From a virus, in the UHGV virus genome UHGV-0174779: a stretch of DNA of 64,000 nt; one strand, written 5' to 3'. This document shows positions 15,822 through 27,608 of the stretch, in pieces (the stretch's first letter is position 1; the number at the start of each line of letters is the position of its first letter). A model generated the notes under the pieces. The model was given only the letters and a program-made list of their open reading frames with translations. It ran no database searches and had not been told where the DNA came from. The translations under genes were made by a program, and so were the position numbers.

Positions 15822-16337
15822 ATGAAGCTAGATCTAAGTAAAGCAGTTGTTGATAAAGGTGTTGGTTATTTGTATGTGTACCAACCAACACACCCTATGG
15901 CCAATAAAGCTGGAAAGGTGTATGTTCATAGATATGTTGCTCAAAATTTCTACGGTGTCGAACTGAACTCTGACCTAGTGGTTCATCACAAGGATGAGAA
16001 TAAGTTAAACAACGAACCATCTAATTTAGAAATCATGACTTATGAGGAGCATAGCAGGCACCATCATGGGGCTGTCATGGAAGAAAGGTTATGTTCTTTT
16101 TGTGGAGAGATTTACCTTGTTTCAGAGAATAGCAACCAAAGGTTTTGCTCACAGCTTTGTGCCAAATTAGATAGCAGACGGTTTGAAATAACAAAAGAAT
16201 CTCTTCAGTCTTTAATAGACATTTACCCCGTGTATGTAGTAGGGAGGTTACTGAGTGTTAGTGATTCGGCTGTCCATAAGAGATGTAGGATTCTTGGTGT
16301 TGTTAAAAAGCCGAAAGGTTTTTGGTTAACTAAATAG
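15822..16337 (+). CDS. HNH endonuclease
   Basis: HNH motif (VVHHKDENKLNNEPSNLEIMTYEEH). Confidence 0.6.
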   Translation: MKLDLSKAVVDKGVGYLYVYQPTHPMANKAGKVYVHRYVAQNFYGVELNSDLVVHHKDENKLNNEPSNLEIMTYEEHSRHHHGAVMEERLCSFCGEIYLVSENSNQRFCSQLCAKLDSRRFEITKESLQSLIDIYPVYVVGRLLSVSDSAVHKRCRILGVVKKPKGFWLTK

Positions 16338-22137: not shown

Positions 22138-22755
22138 GTGAGCTTAGTAGCTGATTTTTCTCATTACTATAGTGGCACATGGATTGCTAAACGAGCAGGC
22201 AACATCAACCTTCCCTGTTTTGTGATTGGTGTTGAGCAGAGAGGTAACTTCCGCAGCGACGACTTCTCACATGAAGCAGAACAAGCTCTGTACTTTGTTG
22301 TAGAGCAATGGTACAAGAATGAGAACGGGATTCTCCGAAACACTACGATGAATATTCCAGTGTTTGACCCAACCTTGATTCTTGAATCACCTGATGTTGG
22401 CTATCTGTTCCATAATGGTAACACTGTAAGCTGGACTCATATCAACCCTGTTCGTCAGAGAGCGAAGGGTTTGGTGGGTAACAAGATTCGAAATGCTCCG
22501 GGGGTTGGTCGTTCTATCTCTGGGGAAATGGTTTACAGTCTATTCAATCCTGAATTTGATGGATTGGTTACTCGTTACATTTACATCAACCCTACAGATG
22601 GTAAAGTGCATTATAAAGGTGCACGGGTAGGTCAGGTAGATCTGGAAGCACCTCGTGACTCTTACGGTCAGCAACCGATGCGACTTCTGGAACATTTTCA
22701 TCACATCTCTGAAAACCTTAGCAATTATAATATTACGTTGGTGGATTCGTTATGA
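22138..22755 (+). CDS. protein of unknown function (205 aa, GTG start), amidoligase cluster
   Basis: RBS AAGAGG. Confidence 0.5.
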   Translation: MSLVADFSHYYSGTWIAKRAGNINLPCFVIGVEQRGNFRSDDFSHEAEQALYFVVEQWYKNENGILRNTTMNIPVFDPTLILESPDVGYLFHNGNTVSWTHINPVRQRAKGLVGNKIRNAPGVGRSISGEMVYSLFNPEFDGLVTRYIYINPTDGKVHYKGARVGQVDLEAPRDSYGQQPMRLLEHFHHISENLSNYNITLVDSL

Positions 22756-23855
22756 CAACTGTAGCGCAAACTTTTGGATATCGAGAAGGTCGTTTAACTG
22801 AGGCGCATAGTTCAATTGCACTTCAGTGCGGTGTCGGTATTGAACTTGAACTCGAAGGTTCTGAACATATCGAAGCAGATATGTGGGATTGCACAGAGGA
22901 TGGTTCCCTGCGTAACGGTTGTGAAATGGTATGTTCACGACCTTACAACGGACAGGAGTTGTTAGACGCTATCAACAACCTGAGTGAAGCAGTAGCTGAA
23001 TCGCACGCCGAGGGGACTTGGCGTTGCTCTACTCACGTTCATATGGATATGAGGGATGCTGATAGTAATATCCTCAAGAAGACCATTCTAGCTTGGACCT
23101 TCTATGAAAAGATGTTGTTCAAGTGTTCAGGCTACCATCGTTACCGTAGCAACTTCTGCCCTGCTTTCGCAGTGGTACAAGCACAGGTAATGAATGCCTC
23201 TGACGCATTTAACTACGACGATGAAGAGTTCTTCAACCGTCTGGTTCGTTCATGGGATAAATATACATCTCTGAACCTTCTGCCACTTGCCCAATATGGT
23301 TCGATCGAGTTCCGTATCAGTGAGCCTAAGTGGAAACGTGGTCAACTTCTCAATCTGGTTAACCGCTTCTTAATGTTGAAGAAGCTGGCTTTAGATAACG
23401 CAGAGATGAGCAATGATCAGTTTATCGAGCATTTAAATACTGTACGATTTGCCCCAATGCTTCCTTATCTTCCACTAGATTACAGTCTGGATGAATTGGA
23501 TTTGCATTCAGGGTATTGTATGGCCCGTGATGTTTTGTACTGCCGTTCTCATGAAGTAGAGCAGTCTGGTCGTATTCGTTTACGTCGAACCAACCCAAGT
23601 GGAGAAGTTCTTGTTGACTTACGTCTTATCTCAGACTTCTATGGATACCTTGGATATGTCCGAGGGAATGCTAACAACTTGTACCAAGAGATTTTGGTCA
23701 TGCTTAATACAACAGATCTATCTACTGTACGATCTGCACCAGAGCAATGTATCCGTGAGATCTTTGACTTACTTCGTGAGTCAGGCCATATTGATAATAA
23801 TATCACAGGGTACATTCCAGATCATCTGGAGTATCAGTTAGAGCAAGCGCTGTAA
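22752..23855 (+). CDS. amidoligase (glutamine-synthetase-like fold), putative
   Basis: GVGIELELEG...EDGSL...CSTHVHMD motifs typical of predicted amidoligases. Confidence 0.6.
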   Translation: MTTVAQTFGYREGRLTEAHSSIALQCGVGIELELEGSEHIEADMWDCTEDGSLRNGCEMVCSRPYNGQELLDAINNLSEAVAESHAEGTWRCSTHVHMDMRDADSNILKKTILAWTFYEKMLFKCSGYHRYRSNFCPAFAVVQAQVMNASDAFNYDDEEFFNRLVRSWDKYTSLNLLPLAQYGSIEFRISEPKWKRGQLLNLVNRFLMLKKLALDNAEMSNDQFIEHLNTVRFAPMLPYLPLDYSLDELDLHSGYCMARDVLYCRSHEVEQSGRIRLRRTNPSGEVLVDLRLISDFYGYLGYVRGNANNLYQEILVMLNTTDLSTVRSAPEQCIREIFDLLRESGHIDNNITGYIPDHLEYQLEQAL

Positions 23856-23934
23856 TCAATGGGTGCCTCTGATAAAGGGGCACAATTTAAAGGTTAATTA
23901 GATGAAAGGGTTTACCCTTCAGGTGGATTAGAAA

Positions 23935-25965
23935 ATTTGCGGCATCGTATTAGCTGGCGGTAATCTGTCAAGCACCGATTTAGACGTATTCAACCAACTC
24001 TTTTATGCTGGGGTATTCCGAGGACAACATTCCTCTGGTATCTTTGGTCAGCGTAAAAGTACTAAGGAAGTCTTCACTTATAAGGAAGCTCTTCCCTCTT
24101 TCGCATTCATCCTACAAGATGAGTATAAGAAGCACACCACTGGTGAAACATCTTATACTGTAGCACCTTCATGGATTGTTGGTCACAGTCGTCATGCAAC
24201 GAAAGGTGCAGTTAACGCCAAGAACGCCCATCCTTTCCAACACGGTAACATCACTCTGGTTCATAACGGAACCTTGATGGACCAAGATCTGTTACCTGAC
24301 AGTAAAAACTTCGAGGTAGACAGTGAGAACATCTGCTACTCTATTAACACTATTGGTGCAGCAGAGACTATTCAAAAGCTGGATGGTGCTTTCACCTTAA
24401 TCTGGCATGATGCTTCTGATAACCGTCTTCATATTATTCGTAACGAAGAGCGTCCTTTCCATCTCGCACGTTGTAATAGAGATTGGTTTGGTGCTTCTGA
24501 AGAAGATATGCTGATGTGGATTCTGAAGCGTTCTAAGTCTCACAAAAACCGAATTGATGAGCACTTTGAATGTAAAGTTGGTACAGAATATATCTTTGAT
24601 ATGTCAAACAACAGCATGACTCTGGTTGAAGAGGTCGCCCATGAGCTTCCGGTTTTTACGGTAGTCAATCGTTGGGCCAGTTACTACTCGAACAACTACA
24701 GCCAAAGCAATTATCAAAGCTCCTCAAAAAGCAGTACAAGCAATCCTTACGACACGAAGCCGGGAGTGACAGCGGCAGACGTTCGTCGAAGAAACGCAGT
24801 GGTAAGTCAAAACAAAATCGCAAGCGATCGAAACATTGATATTCGCCGCGACATGACTGTGGAAATCACACCACATGAATTTGTTCCCTATGCAACTGCT
24901 GGTGCTGTTCCTTCTCGTGGTAAGATGATTGGTTATATCTACGATGAGAAATCTCAAGAGTACATTGAAGGTGATGTTCATAACGTAGACATTAAGGCTT
25001 ATCAGGATGCCCTGAAAGACCCTAAAATTGTTTACCGTGGGACAGTATCCTGCATCTCCGAAGTCGATGCTATGGTTCGTTTAGTAATCACAGCAGGTCG
25101 TTTTGTTGACCCATCTCTGGAGAAAAAGGAGCCTGAGTCAACTACTGCTGACTTCGATGATGATATCCCTTTTGACATGAATGATAGTTTCGTCAACAAG
25201 AATGGCGTTACTATCACTCGTAAATTCTGGGAAGCACACTCTCATGGTGATTGTGGTGGTTGTGACAAGCACATTGATTGGAAGGATGCACCTAAAGCAG
25301 TCTTCGCATATCAGTGCTACTGGCATCCCGAGTGTCTGGAAAGGTTGACTAAACCTAAAGAGGAAGAAGAGGAGGAGACTCCTATCGGTGTTTGTGAAAT
25401 CTGTGGTGAGGTTAAAACAGAGAATGAGTTCGATGAAGAACTTAGCCGCCTCCGTGGTGAAGATATCTGTAAAGACTGTGCTGTAGAAGTAAAGAAGAAA
25501 GTGTCTAATGCTACGATCAAAGATGGTTATGTCTGGATTAAAGCAACAGATACAACAAACACCCGTCGTCCTGAAATTGCTGTACGTGTAACTGAGGAAA
25601 TGATTGGTCGTATGACCGTATTACCCTCCTCAGCGAAACAAACAGGTATCACTCTGGAAGATGTTGTTGATGCTTATGTTGAGAAACGTGGCAACAGTAT
25701 TTTTGCAATCTCGACTAAGCCAAAAAAGGAGGAACCTGCTGAGAAAGCAGGTGTGTTTCCTGAATCACGAACAGCTCTCCGCAAAACTGTTGTCAGCTTC
25801 GACGGAAATCGAAGCACTGACTTCACCAAAGCCATGTGGTCAACCCTCGGATACTGCTCAGAGTGTTTTAAGCAGATTCCGTGGCGCGATGCTGAAAGTT
25901 GTACGCTTGGTTCTATGAATCAAGTTTATTGTAATTCTCCTAAATGTTCATTGAATAGAGGTTAA
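23935..25965 (+). CDS. class-II (Ntn) glutamine amidotransferase domain fused to Cys-rich zinc-ribbon repeats; predicted AUU start
   Basis: Frame is open from stop at 23929; translation CGIVLAGG...RGQHSSGIFG...HSRHATKGAVNAKNAHPFQHGNITLVHNG matches the GATase-II N-terminus (MCGIVG). The only codon that puts Cys at position 2 is ATT 23935, 8 nt after AGGTGG. The track ORF 24274-25965 (TTG) would remove the catalytic domain. Confidence 0.65.
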   Translation: MCGIVLAGGNLSSTDLDVFNQLFYAGVFRGQHSSGIFGQRKSTKEVFTYKEALPSFAFILQDEYKKHTTGETSYTVAPSWIVGHSRHATKGAVNAKNAHPFQHGNITLVHNGTLMDQDLLPDSKNFEVDSENICYSINTIGAAETIQKLDGAFTLIWHDASDNRLHIIRNEERPFHLARCNRDWFGASEEDMLMWILKRSKSHKNRIDEHFECKVGTEYIFDMSNNSMTLVEEVAHELPVFTVVNRWASYYSNNYSQSNYQSSSKSSTSNPYDTKPGVTAADVRRRNAVVSQNKIASDRNIDIRRDMTVEITPHEFVPYATAGAVPSRGKMIGYIYDEKSQEYIEGDVHNVDIKAYQDALKDPKIVYRGTVSCISEVDAMVRLVITAGRFVDPSLEKKEPESTTADFDDDIPFDMNDSFVNKNGVTITRKFWEAHSHGDCGGCDKHIDWKDAPKAVFAYQCYWHPECLERLTKPKEEEEEETPIGVCEICGEVKTENEFDEELSRLRGEDICKDCAVEVKKKVSNATIKDGYVWIKATDTTNTRRPEIAVRVTEEMIGRMTVLPSSAKQTGITLEDVVDAYVEKRGNSIFAISTKPKKEEPAEKAGVFPESRTALRKTVVSFDGNRSTDFTKAMWSTLGYCSECFKQIPWRDAESCTLGSMNQVYCNSPKCSLNRG

Positions 25966-25970
25966 ATCAG

Positions 25971-26204
25971 ATGGAAATTCGTAAGATGATGTTGGATAAT
26001 GTTGTAACTACTCGACGTATCCCGATGACGAGCACAGGATGTGACAACCTTCGTGCAATCCAGAAGTGGATGCAAGCTGGTATTGGTCAAGTACTTGAGA
26101 CACAGGTTGAGGTTCCGTTCCCAACGGTGATCAATAACGTACTTGCTGATTATGTAAAAATCAAAGGCATTAAGGTAGAACCTCATGTCAAATCTGGTTC
26201 CTAA
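25971..26204 (+). CDS. hypothetical protein (77 aa)
   Basis: ORF only. Confidence 0.4.
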   Translation: MEIRKMMLDNVVTTRRIPMTSTGCDNLRAIQKWMQAGIGQVLETQVEVPFPTVINNVLADYVKIKGIKVEPHVKSGS

Positions 26205-26409
26205 GAAACCGAAGATTACTCTCCTACAGTATTACATAGGAGTTCATATCGAATTAGTAACGGAGCAGCGAAAGCTGTATCCGTTCGCTTTCGGTCTGAT
26301 TGATGCACCATCCGATGAAGTAGAGAACGATGCGTTCAATGACTACTTCGAAATTGAAGCTCAGATTCAAAAAACTCGTAACGAAATTCTTAAACTTAAA
26401 GGTATCTAA
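26185..26409 (+). CDS. hypothetical protein (74 aa)
   Basis: ORF only. Confidence 0.4.
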   Translation: MSNLVPKKPKITLLQYYIGVHIELVTEQRKLYPFAFGLIDAPSDEVENDAFNDYFEIEAQIQKTRNEILKLKGI

Positions 26410-26411
26410 CA

Positions 26412-27608
26412 ATGACTACTCGTATCCGTGTTCTCCCTTATGGCCCTTCTGATTCAGTTCGTGAACTTACTTCTGCTATTAATGCTAAGATTCAGGAACT
26501 TCGACTGAATGCTAACGTAATGTCTCTGGTATCAGAAAACTCTCGTTATCGTTCTCGAGCCGGTGATATTGTTGTAAACTATGGCAACCGTCGTTATGAT
26601 GCTTCTTTCTTTGGTGGTGCAACCGTACTGAACCCTGTTGAAGCCCTGAACCGAGCAGCTAATAAAGTTGCAGCATTTAACGCATTACGGTTGGCTGGAG
26701 TTAAGACTGTTGAATATACCGTTGATCGTGAAGTAGCTCAGAGCTGGAACCAAAACGAAATCGTTTATGAGCGTGCAACCTTAACTGGACATTCTGGTGA
26801 AGGCATCACCGTACGTCTTCCGGGAGAAGGTACTGCAAGTGCTCCTCTGTATACGAAAGGTATTCAAGGTCCGCGTCGTGAATGGCGTGTTCATGTGTTC
26901 GAAGGTGTTATCACTTACGTTCAGAAGAAGATTCGTCGTAATGGATATCGTGAACTGGAAAGCTATCGTGAAAATATTCGCAACCATCACACTGGCTGGG
27001 TTTACTCTAACTCTTTCACTGAAGCTCCTCCTGATCAAGTTCTGATTCAAGCCCACAAAGCTGTGTCTGCTCTGGGTTTAAACTTCGGCGCTGTTGACCT
27101 GATTAGTAAAGGCTCTAACGCTTGGGTTCTGGAAGTAAACACTGCTCCGGGTCTGACTGGTACAACTCTGGAAACTTACACTCACAACATTGTTGAGTTT
27201 GTTAAGAGCTTCTCTGGTGTTGAGCCTGACTACCGCGTTGCTTACGAACTGCCTGTTGAAGAGTCGGAAGTTGAGTTTGCTGACTCAGCGGATGATGAGA
27301 ACTTTGCATTGACAGCTGAGCCAGTTGCTGAAGAGTCATCTGAACCTGTTCCTGAAACAATGCAAGTGGAAGAACAAGGGTTAGAGATCAACCCAATCAC
27401 CCGTCGTACCCTGCGTCGTGGTTATTATATCGCGAACATCAAGCATCCTGAAAACGGCTCAACTGTAGCAAGTAATGTAATTGTTTTCTTCTGCGGTCGT
27501 AACTTCTACCGCTCTGGTTGGAACGCACCAATTAGTGATCGTCAGCTTGGTCGTGTGTTGCAGATTAATAGCCTTACCCTGAATGATGGCACTGTTGTAA
27601 ACTACTAA
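26412..27608 (+). CDS. ATP-grasp ligase (RimK/GshB-like) with C-terminal extension
   Basis: ATP-grasp motifs: GHSGEGITV, REWRVHVFEG, GLNFGAVDLISKGSNAWVLEVNTAPGL. Confidence 0.8.
   Translation: MTTRIRVLPYGPSDSVRELTSAINAKIQELRLNANVMSLVSENSRYRSRAGDIVVNYGNRRYDASFFGGATVLNPVEALNRAANKVAAFNALRLAGVKTVEYTVDREVAQSWNQNEIVYERATLTGHSGEGITVRLPGEGTASAPLYTKGIQGPRREWRVHVFEGVITYVQKKIRRNGYRELESYRENIRNHHTGWVYSNSFTEAPPDQVLIQAHKAVSALGLNFGAVDLISKGSNAWVLEVNTAPGLTGTTLETYTHNIVEFVKSFSGVEPDYRVAYELPVEESEVEFADSADDENFALTAEPVAEESSEPVPETMQVEEQGLEINPITRRTLRRGYYIANIKHPENGSTVASNVIVFFCGRNFYRSGWNAPISDRQLGRVLQINSLTLNDGTVVNY

Follow-up and report, generated by a model that had tools for sequence, protein, structure and literature searches.

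Layout of the locus

The analysed window is one strand, 64,000 nt long, of the virus genome UHGV-0174779, an Escherichia coli podophage of the Kuravirus type (phiEco32/NJ01/SU10-like) which is 95% identical to many isolates. On its + strand, positions 23935 to 25965 hold a gene of 676 codons for a class-II (Ntn, N-terminal nucleophile) amidotransferase of 76.2 kDa. It is the orthologue of phi32_83 of phiEco32, whose coding sequence (CDS), placed on ATT, has the same length. As far as can be judged from sequence, the best explanation of the locus is that the gene is very probably translated from AUU at 23935, and that removal of the initiator methionine leaves the catalytic cysteine, Cys1, at the N-terminus.

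All features described here are on the + strand. The ATT (23935-23937) is followed directly by the TGC of the nucleophile Cys1 (23938-23940; synonymous TGT in relatives) and then by codons for GIVLAGG. A Shine-Dalgarno sequence (SD), AGGTGG (23921-23926), is separated from the ATT by an 8-nt spacer and has a calculated anti-SD duplex energy of -5.9 kcal/mol. A predicted hairpin, AAGGG-UUUA-CCCUU (23906-23919; -4.6 kcal/mol), ends 1 nt before the SD, with its 3' end at -16 from the start codon. Both hairpin and SD are spanned by a mini open reading frame (mini-ORF) of nine codons running from ATG to TAG in frame with the amidotransferase gene (23902-23931; MKGFTLQVD). Its stop codon, TAG 23929-23931, lies 3 nt before the ATT, the gap being filled by AAA (23932-23934). 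A conserved translation-initiation island extends over 23897-23949, i.e. about -38 to +14 relative to the ATT.

From 23932 to 24273 the frame runs through 114 codons without ATG, GTG, TTG or a stop codon, so that a mechanical ORF call begins at TTG 24274. This codon and ATG 24277 (24274-24279) are the first canonical in-frame starts and are used by truncated annotations, which give a product of 63.8 kDa. Missing from such models are codons 2-113 (23938-24273), i.e. the glutaminase part with Cys1, R-x-A-T, NAHPF and the HNG oxyanion-hole motif. The initial annotation of this stretch had proposed initiation at ATT 23935, 8 nt downstream of the SD, and the absence of any in-frame ATG, GTG or TTG before 24274; coordinates and spacing proved to be exact. 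Of the leader, it had recognized the SD and the ATT, but had overlooked the hairpin, the in-frame mini-ORF from ATG 23902 and the conservation of the region. The leader occurs only once in the window and, thus, is not a repeated motif of the phage.

Outside the leader, a terminator-like hairpin (23863-23883; GTGCCTC...GGGGCAC), which has no clear U-tract, follows the stop codon TAA 23853-23855 of the upstream amidoligase gene. Bas87 and ECBP2 have different stem sequences at this position (GGGCGC...GCGC type), the pairing being kept by compensatory changes.

Enzyme family and coding constraint

The assignment to the class-II amidotransferases, which had been made from the N-terminal motif, was borne out by profile comparisons. 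Pfam GATase_6 matched residues 75-175 with 54.1 bits (cut-off 27) and GATase_7 scored 25.3 bits (cut-off 25). A single-sequence search of the PDB with the amidotransferase gave no match, but a profile search matched the glutaminase domains of GlmS and PurF (E = 4e-5 to 5e-3), and the motif residues aligned to residues 68-132 of GlmS (1xff). R85 (R-x-A-T), N110-G111 (H-N-G) and D128 (D-S/T-E) were invariant in the homolog alignment A2, and Cys1 and the Arg and Asn-Gly motifs did not vary among homologs with identities of 50-99%. With a start at 24274 or 24277, the Pfam domain would be halved, and nucleophile, Arg and oxyanion hole would be lost.

For codons 1-112, 18 of the 19 differences between the window and NJ01 are at third positions. 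The comparison with EP335 gave 48 synonymous and 23 nonsynonymous codon differences in the same region, and codons 113-240 show the same pattern. Neither stop codons nor frameshifts occur in the gene among about 97 genomes. Judged from these substitution patterns, codons 1-112 are under purifying selection equal to that on the rest of the gene.

Start codons of homologous genes

Homologs were gathered from five sources, namely two sets of phage records, IMG/VR, metagenomes and bacterial assemblies (loci are numbered with the prefix L). Cys1 is directly preceded by ATG in 56 of 78 unique loci, by ATT in 13, by ATC in one, by TTG in four and by GTG in three, and one locus reads ATG-TGC-TGT; ATT and ATC account for about 18% of the unique loci in this main set. 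Genome-scan and cultured-phage loci add ten ATG, one GTG, one TTG and two new ATT. No propeptide was found among about 95 homologs, all of which start one codon before Cys, and none of the non-AUG loci has a canonical in-frame upstream start able to give a propeptide (L115 has an in-frame upstream TTG, but this lies within its own SD). Since the homologs start directly before Cys, the ATT of the window occupies the exact start position of the family.

A query of 80 nt around the site retrieved 99 phage records with the leader (97 of Escherichia/Shigella and two of Aeromonas phages); chance cannot account for such a pattern. The ATT is invariant in all 99, which comprise the Kuravirus, Nieuwekanaalvirus and Suseptimavirus lineages and one Aeromonas phage. 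ATT, TAG, mini-ORF and SD are identical base for base in NJ01, Paul, SU10, SR02, EP335, Bas87, KBNP1711, ECBP2, phiEco32 and SU7, and the adjacent Cys codon is either TGC or TGT, a synonymous difference, in the E. coli phage relatives. An exact-pattern scan of IMG/VR with the leader core returned five contigs, mostly known isolate genomes. Beyond the near relatives, ATT or ATC is found in about six separate places of the family, counted on a rough neighbor-joining (NJ) tree of a small sample: the window clade with its leader homologs; L039; L090; L098/L099/L106/L107; L110; and L129, which came from a later genome scan. The earlier proposal that AUU initiation exposes Cys1 is, thus, supported by the start position of the homologs (ATG, in some cases GTG or TTG, at the same codon, with ATT kept in near relatives), by the conserved ATT with its good SD and by purifying selection on the codons that follow.

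Some loci deserve separate mention. The N-terminal Cys codon is duplicated in L032/L078 (IMGVR_UViG_3300025276_000050 = Ga0208814_1000166), which reads ATG TGC TGT (Met-Cys-Cys). L126 and L130 are contigs 99% identical to Kuravirus inside the metagenome-assembled genome CALKAR01, labelled ‘Peptococcaceae’, and L127 and L128 are short phage-like contigs with the amidotransferase in the isolate assembly NZ_JANLCJ01 of the actinobacterium Herbiconiux daphne. Both cases probably represent contamination or mis-binning.

Existing annotations and proteomics

The AUU start of this gene is not new. Curators had placed the CDS on the same ATT in phiEco32 (EU330206, phi32_83, ABY52884.1; 2008), in SU10 and in the BASEL phages Bas87 and Bas91; hence, the bare finding is of moderate interest. 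SU10 and the BASEL phages Bas86-94 have orthologues of phi32_83 which, like phi32_83 itself, are the same gene with the same leader, 95-99% identical to the window, and their curated CDS likewise starts at the ATT. In other records the annotated start lies downstream, at codon 11 in SU7, codon 12 in the RefSeq record of BUCT695, codon 27 in SR02, about codon 59 in EP335 and at ATG 24277 in NJ01 and Paul. In 45 of the 55 annotated records listed with the leader matches, the first ten codons lie outside any CDS, just as the initial annotation had expected when it stated that automated annotation would truncate the catalytic domain. No comment on the ATT start or the leader was found in the literature searched (the original phiEco32 genome paper was outside the search). 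In the proteomics of SU10 the protein was found with nine peptides, and the mass given in the table, 63.8 kDa, is that of the truncated model.

Conservation of the leader

Among the E. coli phage lineages, about 48 nt (23890-23937) are free of any substitution, while the flanks of the site differ by 20-35%. About 97 records of Kuravirus-type E. coli/Shigella phages share the ATT and the 48-nt leader without any difference. A comparison with the Aeromonas phage BUCT695, a member of the Grimontviridae whose amidotransferase is about 52-54% identical to that of the window, gave 90-95% identity from -38 to +12 relative to the ATT, but only about 30% upstream of this island and 40-60% in the gene body. 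In a whole-genome comparison of the two phages the island is the most conserved stretch, with 87% identity over 79 nt, whereas all other homologous genes reach 64-71%. The extent of the conserved island matches that of a ribosome-binding footprint. In the tree, the BUCT695 protein clusters with those of ATG-type Cronobacter and Salmonella phages, yet its gene shares the leader of the window except for two substitutions: the SD reads AGGCGG instead of AGGTGG, and one base of the hairpin loop differs.

A divergent version of the leader is present in L128, one of the phage-like contigs of the Herbiconiux assembly (60% protein identity). The hairpin, its stem lengthened by a compensating A-T pair, is kept together with SD, GATTAG and ATT, the start codon of the mini-ORF is absent, and two consecutive stop codons (TAG TAA) precede the ATT.

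The leader was also searched for known elements. Matches to Rfam families were below threshold (11-17 bits against gathering scores of 44-70), and a known RNA family was rejected for this reason. No σ70 promoter was found in the leader on the + strand; counts were at the level of shuffled sequences, and none is included in the published promoter list of SU10. A predicted helix between SD and AUU was not relied on, because it consists mostly of G-U pairs.

Many relatives (L007, L008, L009, L010, L022, L024 and L039) have a TTTAAATGTAA-like motif ahead of the gene, some 20-35 nt from the start codon; the window has TTTAAAGGTTAAT at 23886-23898. The motif is similar to AATGTA, the published core of the phiEco32 gp36 promoter, which is centred at -11.5. 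A gp36-type promoter is plausible in BUCT695 and other Grimontviridae; the version in the window has mismatches at two of six positions. Transcription from this motif in BUCT695 would begin at the AUG of the mini-ORF, and the hairpin would then be 5'-terminal. In the ATG-type relatives, the implied start would come after the SD, which makes the motif unfit as a promoter for the amidotransferase gene.

A direct repeat, ATTAGA, flanks the segment of hairpin and SD (23897-23902 and 23927-23932). In the closest ATG-type relatives a single ATTAGA is present (in L024 as ...AAATTAGAGGATGTATTAA directly before ATG). The segment of about 28 nt therefore looks like an insertion, which fits the patchy distribution of the leader.

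Hairpins at weak start codons

Every locus was scored for a hairpin of -3 kcal/mol or better with its 3' end at -22 to -10 from the start codon. Such a hairpin was found at 12 of 14 ATT/ATC loci (13 of 16 with L128 and L129 included), at two of seven TTG/GTG loci and at two of 55 ATG loci; random window positions gave about 11%, and of 84 crudely called gene starts of the window 10 had one. These associations are correlations in a modest sample of loci which are partly related. At the ATT/ATC loci the 3' end of the hairpin is always at -14 to -16, flush with the SD, and by lineage four of the six ATT/ATC lineages have the hairpin.

The hairpin sequences differ from lineage to lineage. In L098/L099/L106/L107 the stem is 95.8% paired, although four of its six pairs are changed on both sides; in controls with slid partners the pairing was 17-50%, and the covariation score stayed below the observed one in all shuffles. 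The NJ tree contains six weak-start, hairpin-bearing branches, each next to an ATG neighbor without hairpin: the window clade next to L022-24, BUCT695 next to A24, L106 next to L097, L090 next to L092, L100 next to L087/88 and L039 next to L042-49. SDs are somewhat stronger at ATT/ATC loci (Mann-Whitney U test, p = 0.009), and at these loci the gene is in every case separated from its upstream neighbor by 14-105 nt of intergenic DNA and never coupled to it. The ATG-type homologs among L030-L049 and L069-L096 are mostly translationally coupled, with the upstream stop codon at -13, -1, +1 or +2, so that many overlap or adjoin this stop.

The hairpin may act by stabilizing SD binding, by docking on the platform of the 30S subunit, by protecting the 5' end or by blocking coupling to the upstream gene. 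In L039, an in-frame ATG TGT TGA resembling a disabled ATG-Cys start is located upstream of the ATT (~555-600) and is followed by hairpin, SD and TAA-ATT; this order suggests that a segment of hairpin and SD may have been inserted behind an older start.

C-terminal part and gene neighborhood

The C-terminal ~430 residues (about 24660-25962) have no Pfam match and contain three CxxC...CxxC clusters, which are zinc-ribbon-like, as well as an acidic/lysine-rich linker. The neighborhood (22138-27608) consists of a hypothetical protein, Amidoligase_2, the amidotransferase, two small ORFs and a RimK-like ATP-grasp protein; in relatives, a COOH-NH2 ligase is encoded upstream. The cluster is kept from Kuravirus to Grimontviridae and to Pseudomonas and Arthrobacter phages. 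Glutaminase activity coupled to a synthase partner would be expected of a class-II amidotransferase; the genes nearby are those for amidoligase, COOH-NH2 ligase and ATP-grasp proteins.

Proposed initiation at AUU

In the window clade, the initiation region is strongly conserved: a predicted 5-bp hairpin is flush with the SD, which is followed by a stop codon, a gap of 3 nt and AUU. In the proposed mechanism, a 30S subunit would bind the AGGUGG 8 nt upstream of AUU and the initiator fMet-tRNA would pair imperfectly with this codon. Methionine aminopeptidase accepts Cys as second residue; hence, removal of fMet is expected, and deformylase and the aminopeptidase would together expose Cys1 as the nucleophile of the 76-kDa enzyme. 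Cys must be residue 1 and, therefore, the start site is immovable, so that expression could be tuned only through the start codon and its surroundings. We infer that the initiator tRNA decodes the AUU and that hairpin and strong SD aid or regulate initiation at this weak codon. By analogy with infC, expression may be sensitive to initiation factor 3 (IF3).

A further-reaching proposal, which we consider tentative, is that hairpin, SD and AUU constitute a dedicated initiation module for weak starts, which would have arisen or spread repeatedly and in which the helix gates the AUU. The helix abutting the SD would stack on the SD:anti-SD duplex or dock on the 30S platform, the start would be locked by the requirement for Cys1 in phage Ntn-amidotransferase genes, and the output of enzyme would depend on IF3 and the translation status of the infected cell. 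For the window clade, the conservation at nucleotide level, with the island being the most conserved DNA between two phage families, might point to an additional sequence-specific partner or to lateral movement of the region as a cassette.

Several observations weigh against these proposals. AUU is normally a poor start codon, against which IF3 discriminates. A purely structural role would not account for the fact that, in the E. coli phages, the bases of loop and spacer are fully invariant, and the minimum free energy of the leader is not significantly lower than that of shuffled sequences (z = -1.7). L110 and L129 are ATT lineages without the hairpin and L067 and L054 are ATG loci which have it; thus, the hairpin is neither necessary nor exclusive. 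The number of independent lineages depends on the coarse tree mentioned above. Finally, the SU10 proteomics cannot tell the possible starts apart, because the database held the truncated model and N-terminal peptides could not be scored.

Alternative explanations

Termination-reinitiation is a variant of AUU initiation rather than an alternative start site. Ribosomes would mainly enter at the mini-ORF (AUG 23902 to UAG 23929), melt the hairpin, slide by 6 nt after termination and restart at AUU. As in thrS-infC, and in the same register, the SD lies within the upstream ORF, whose stop codon is separated from AUU by 3 nt, and the ATG of the mini-ORF is kept in all E. coli phage lineages and in BUCT695. 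Furthermore, in L039, an independent ATT lineage, an AUG mini-ORF runs across hairpin and SD and ends 4 nt ahead of the AUU. However, the mini-ORF has a weak SD of its own in the window (-3.4 kcal/mol) and none in BUCT695 (+0.9 kcal/mol), both BUCT695 substitutions within the mini-ORF are nonsynonymous, L128 retains hairpin, SD and ATT without a start codon for the mini-ORF, and L090, L098, L099, L106, L107, L110 and L129 have no AUG mini-ORF at all. Reinitiation is, therefore, unlikely to be the main route of entry; it is a plausible contributor, but the evidence weighs against an essential role.

Read-through of UAG 23929 by ribosomes starting at AUG 23902 would instead produce a propeptide of 12 residues, autocatalytic cleavage of which would expose the Cys. 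Propeptide-bearing Ntn amidotransferases exist, e.g. PurF of B. subtilis with 11 residues, AUG 23902 is in the frame of the Cys with only the UAG between them, and TAG is the rarest stop codon in the window: the 39 ORFs of at least 150 amino acids end in TAA (27), TGA (11) and TAG (one, ORF 15822-16337). Nevertheless, we regard this explanation as highly improbable. The frame upstream of the Cys is not open to a canonical start, since TAG 23929 interrupts it two codons before the Cys, and the other genes of the window are read by the standard code with TAA and TGA stops. ARAGORN found no tRNA gene, and hence no suppressor, in the 64 kb, and the seven tRNAs annotated in BUCT695 do not include a suppressor either. 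The roughly 95 homologs are without propeptide, L128 has TAG TAA and no upstream in-frame start, and in L039 no start codon intervenes between the in-frame TGA and TAA. Read-through would also leave the conserved SD 8 nt from the ATT unexplained.

Even less credible is a decaying remnant, in which case the N-terminal homology would be non-functional and a 63.8-kDa product without glutaminase activity would be made from TTG 24274 or ATG 24277. Most GenBank records do annotate the truncated gene, and the proteomics table of SU10 lists 63.8 kDa, though as the mass of a database model and not as a measured size. The initial annotation had named a pseudogene remnant as a finding that would speak against an AUU start, and this is contradicted by the data: synonymous bias in codons 1-112 equals that of the downstream codons, the reading frame is intact in about 97 genomes, Cys1, Arg and Asn-Gly are invariant, and the Pfam domain (75-175) would be cut in half.

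A sequencing or assembly error turning ATG into ATT, also considered at first and favored by nothing but the rarity of ATT starts, can practically be dismissed, since the 99 phage records, which come from many different laboratories and platforms and include about 97 genomes sequenced independently, agree in this base with independent metagenome contigs, and unrelated lineages of the family have ATT or ATC as well.

Comparison with known systems

The closest known counterpart of the proposed AUU start is infC of E. coli, which likewise has a strong SD inside a preceding frame and a stop codon 3 nt before AUU. The register is identical (GGAGGAA-TAA-GGT-ATT in infC, GGTGGAT-TAG-AAA-ATT in the window), with 13 nt from the first G of the SD to AUU. 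AUU at infC is a proven start with useful levels of translation (PMC3592434, PMC5499595) and is phylogenetically conserved rather than accidental; it is the codon most sensitive to IF3, and infC and pcnB are the only natural AUU starts in E. coli (PMC5499595). Reporters of the infC junction showed about equal reinitiation and de novo initiation (PMC3592434). There are differences, however. The preceding frame is the complete gene thrS at infC, but a mini-ORF of nine codons in the window, and a hairpin next to the SD is lacking at infC, where the best candidate has +3.4 kcal/mol. Moreover, the AUU of infC serves autoregulation by its own product, IF3, whereas the product here is an unrelated enzyme, so that any IF3 sensitivity would be one-way.

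PurF, GlmS and AsnB of E. coli use AUG. They share with the phage protein the Cys directly after the initiator, the R-x-A-T, NAHP, HNG and D-S/T-E motifs and the Pfam domains GATase_6/7/4, but the phage protein differs in its ~430-residue C-terminal part with three CxxC clusters and no known synthase domain.

Leaders such as those of ompA and T7 gene 10 have stabilizing 5'-proximal hairpins, and other structured mRNAs dock on the 30S platform. The likeness to the leader of the window would lie in a small, stable hairpin directly preceding the ribosome-binding site. No description was found in the literature of such hairpins tied specifically to AUU or AUC starts.

Significance

Most public records of Kuravirus-type phages contain a truncated, catalytically dead model of this gene, which needs correction. 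AUU starts are almost invisible to gene finders; in the amidotransferase family, the requirement for Cys1 is a built-in marker of the true N-terminus and reveals recurrent non-canonical starts. On the comparative evidence, the gene is supported as a well-documented addition to the small class of AUU-initiated genes. What goes beyond the start codon is the extreme conservation of the initiation region, which is shared with a phage from a different family, and the recurrent architecture of hairpin, SD and AUU. With about 55 nt, this arrangement would be a compact and testable system for the use of a weak start codon by the ribosome, and it may bear on whether phages exploit IF3-sensitive initiation.

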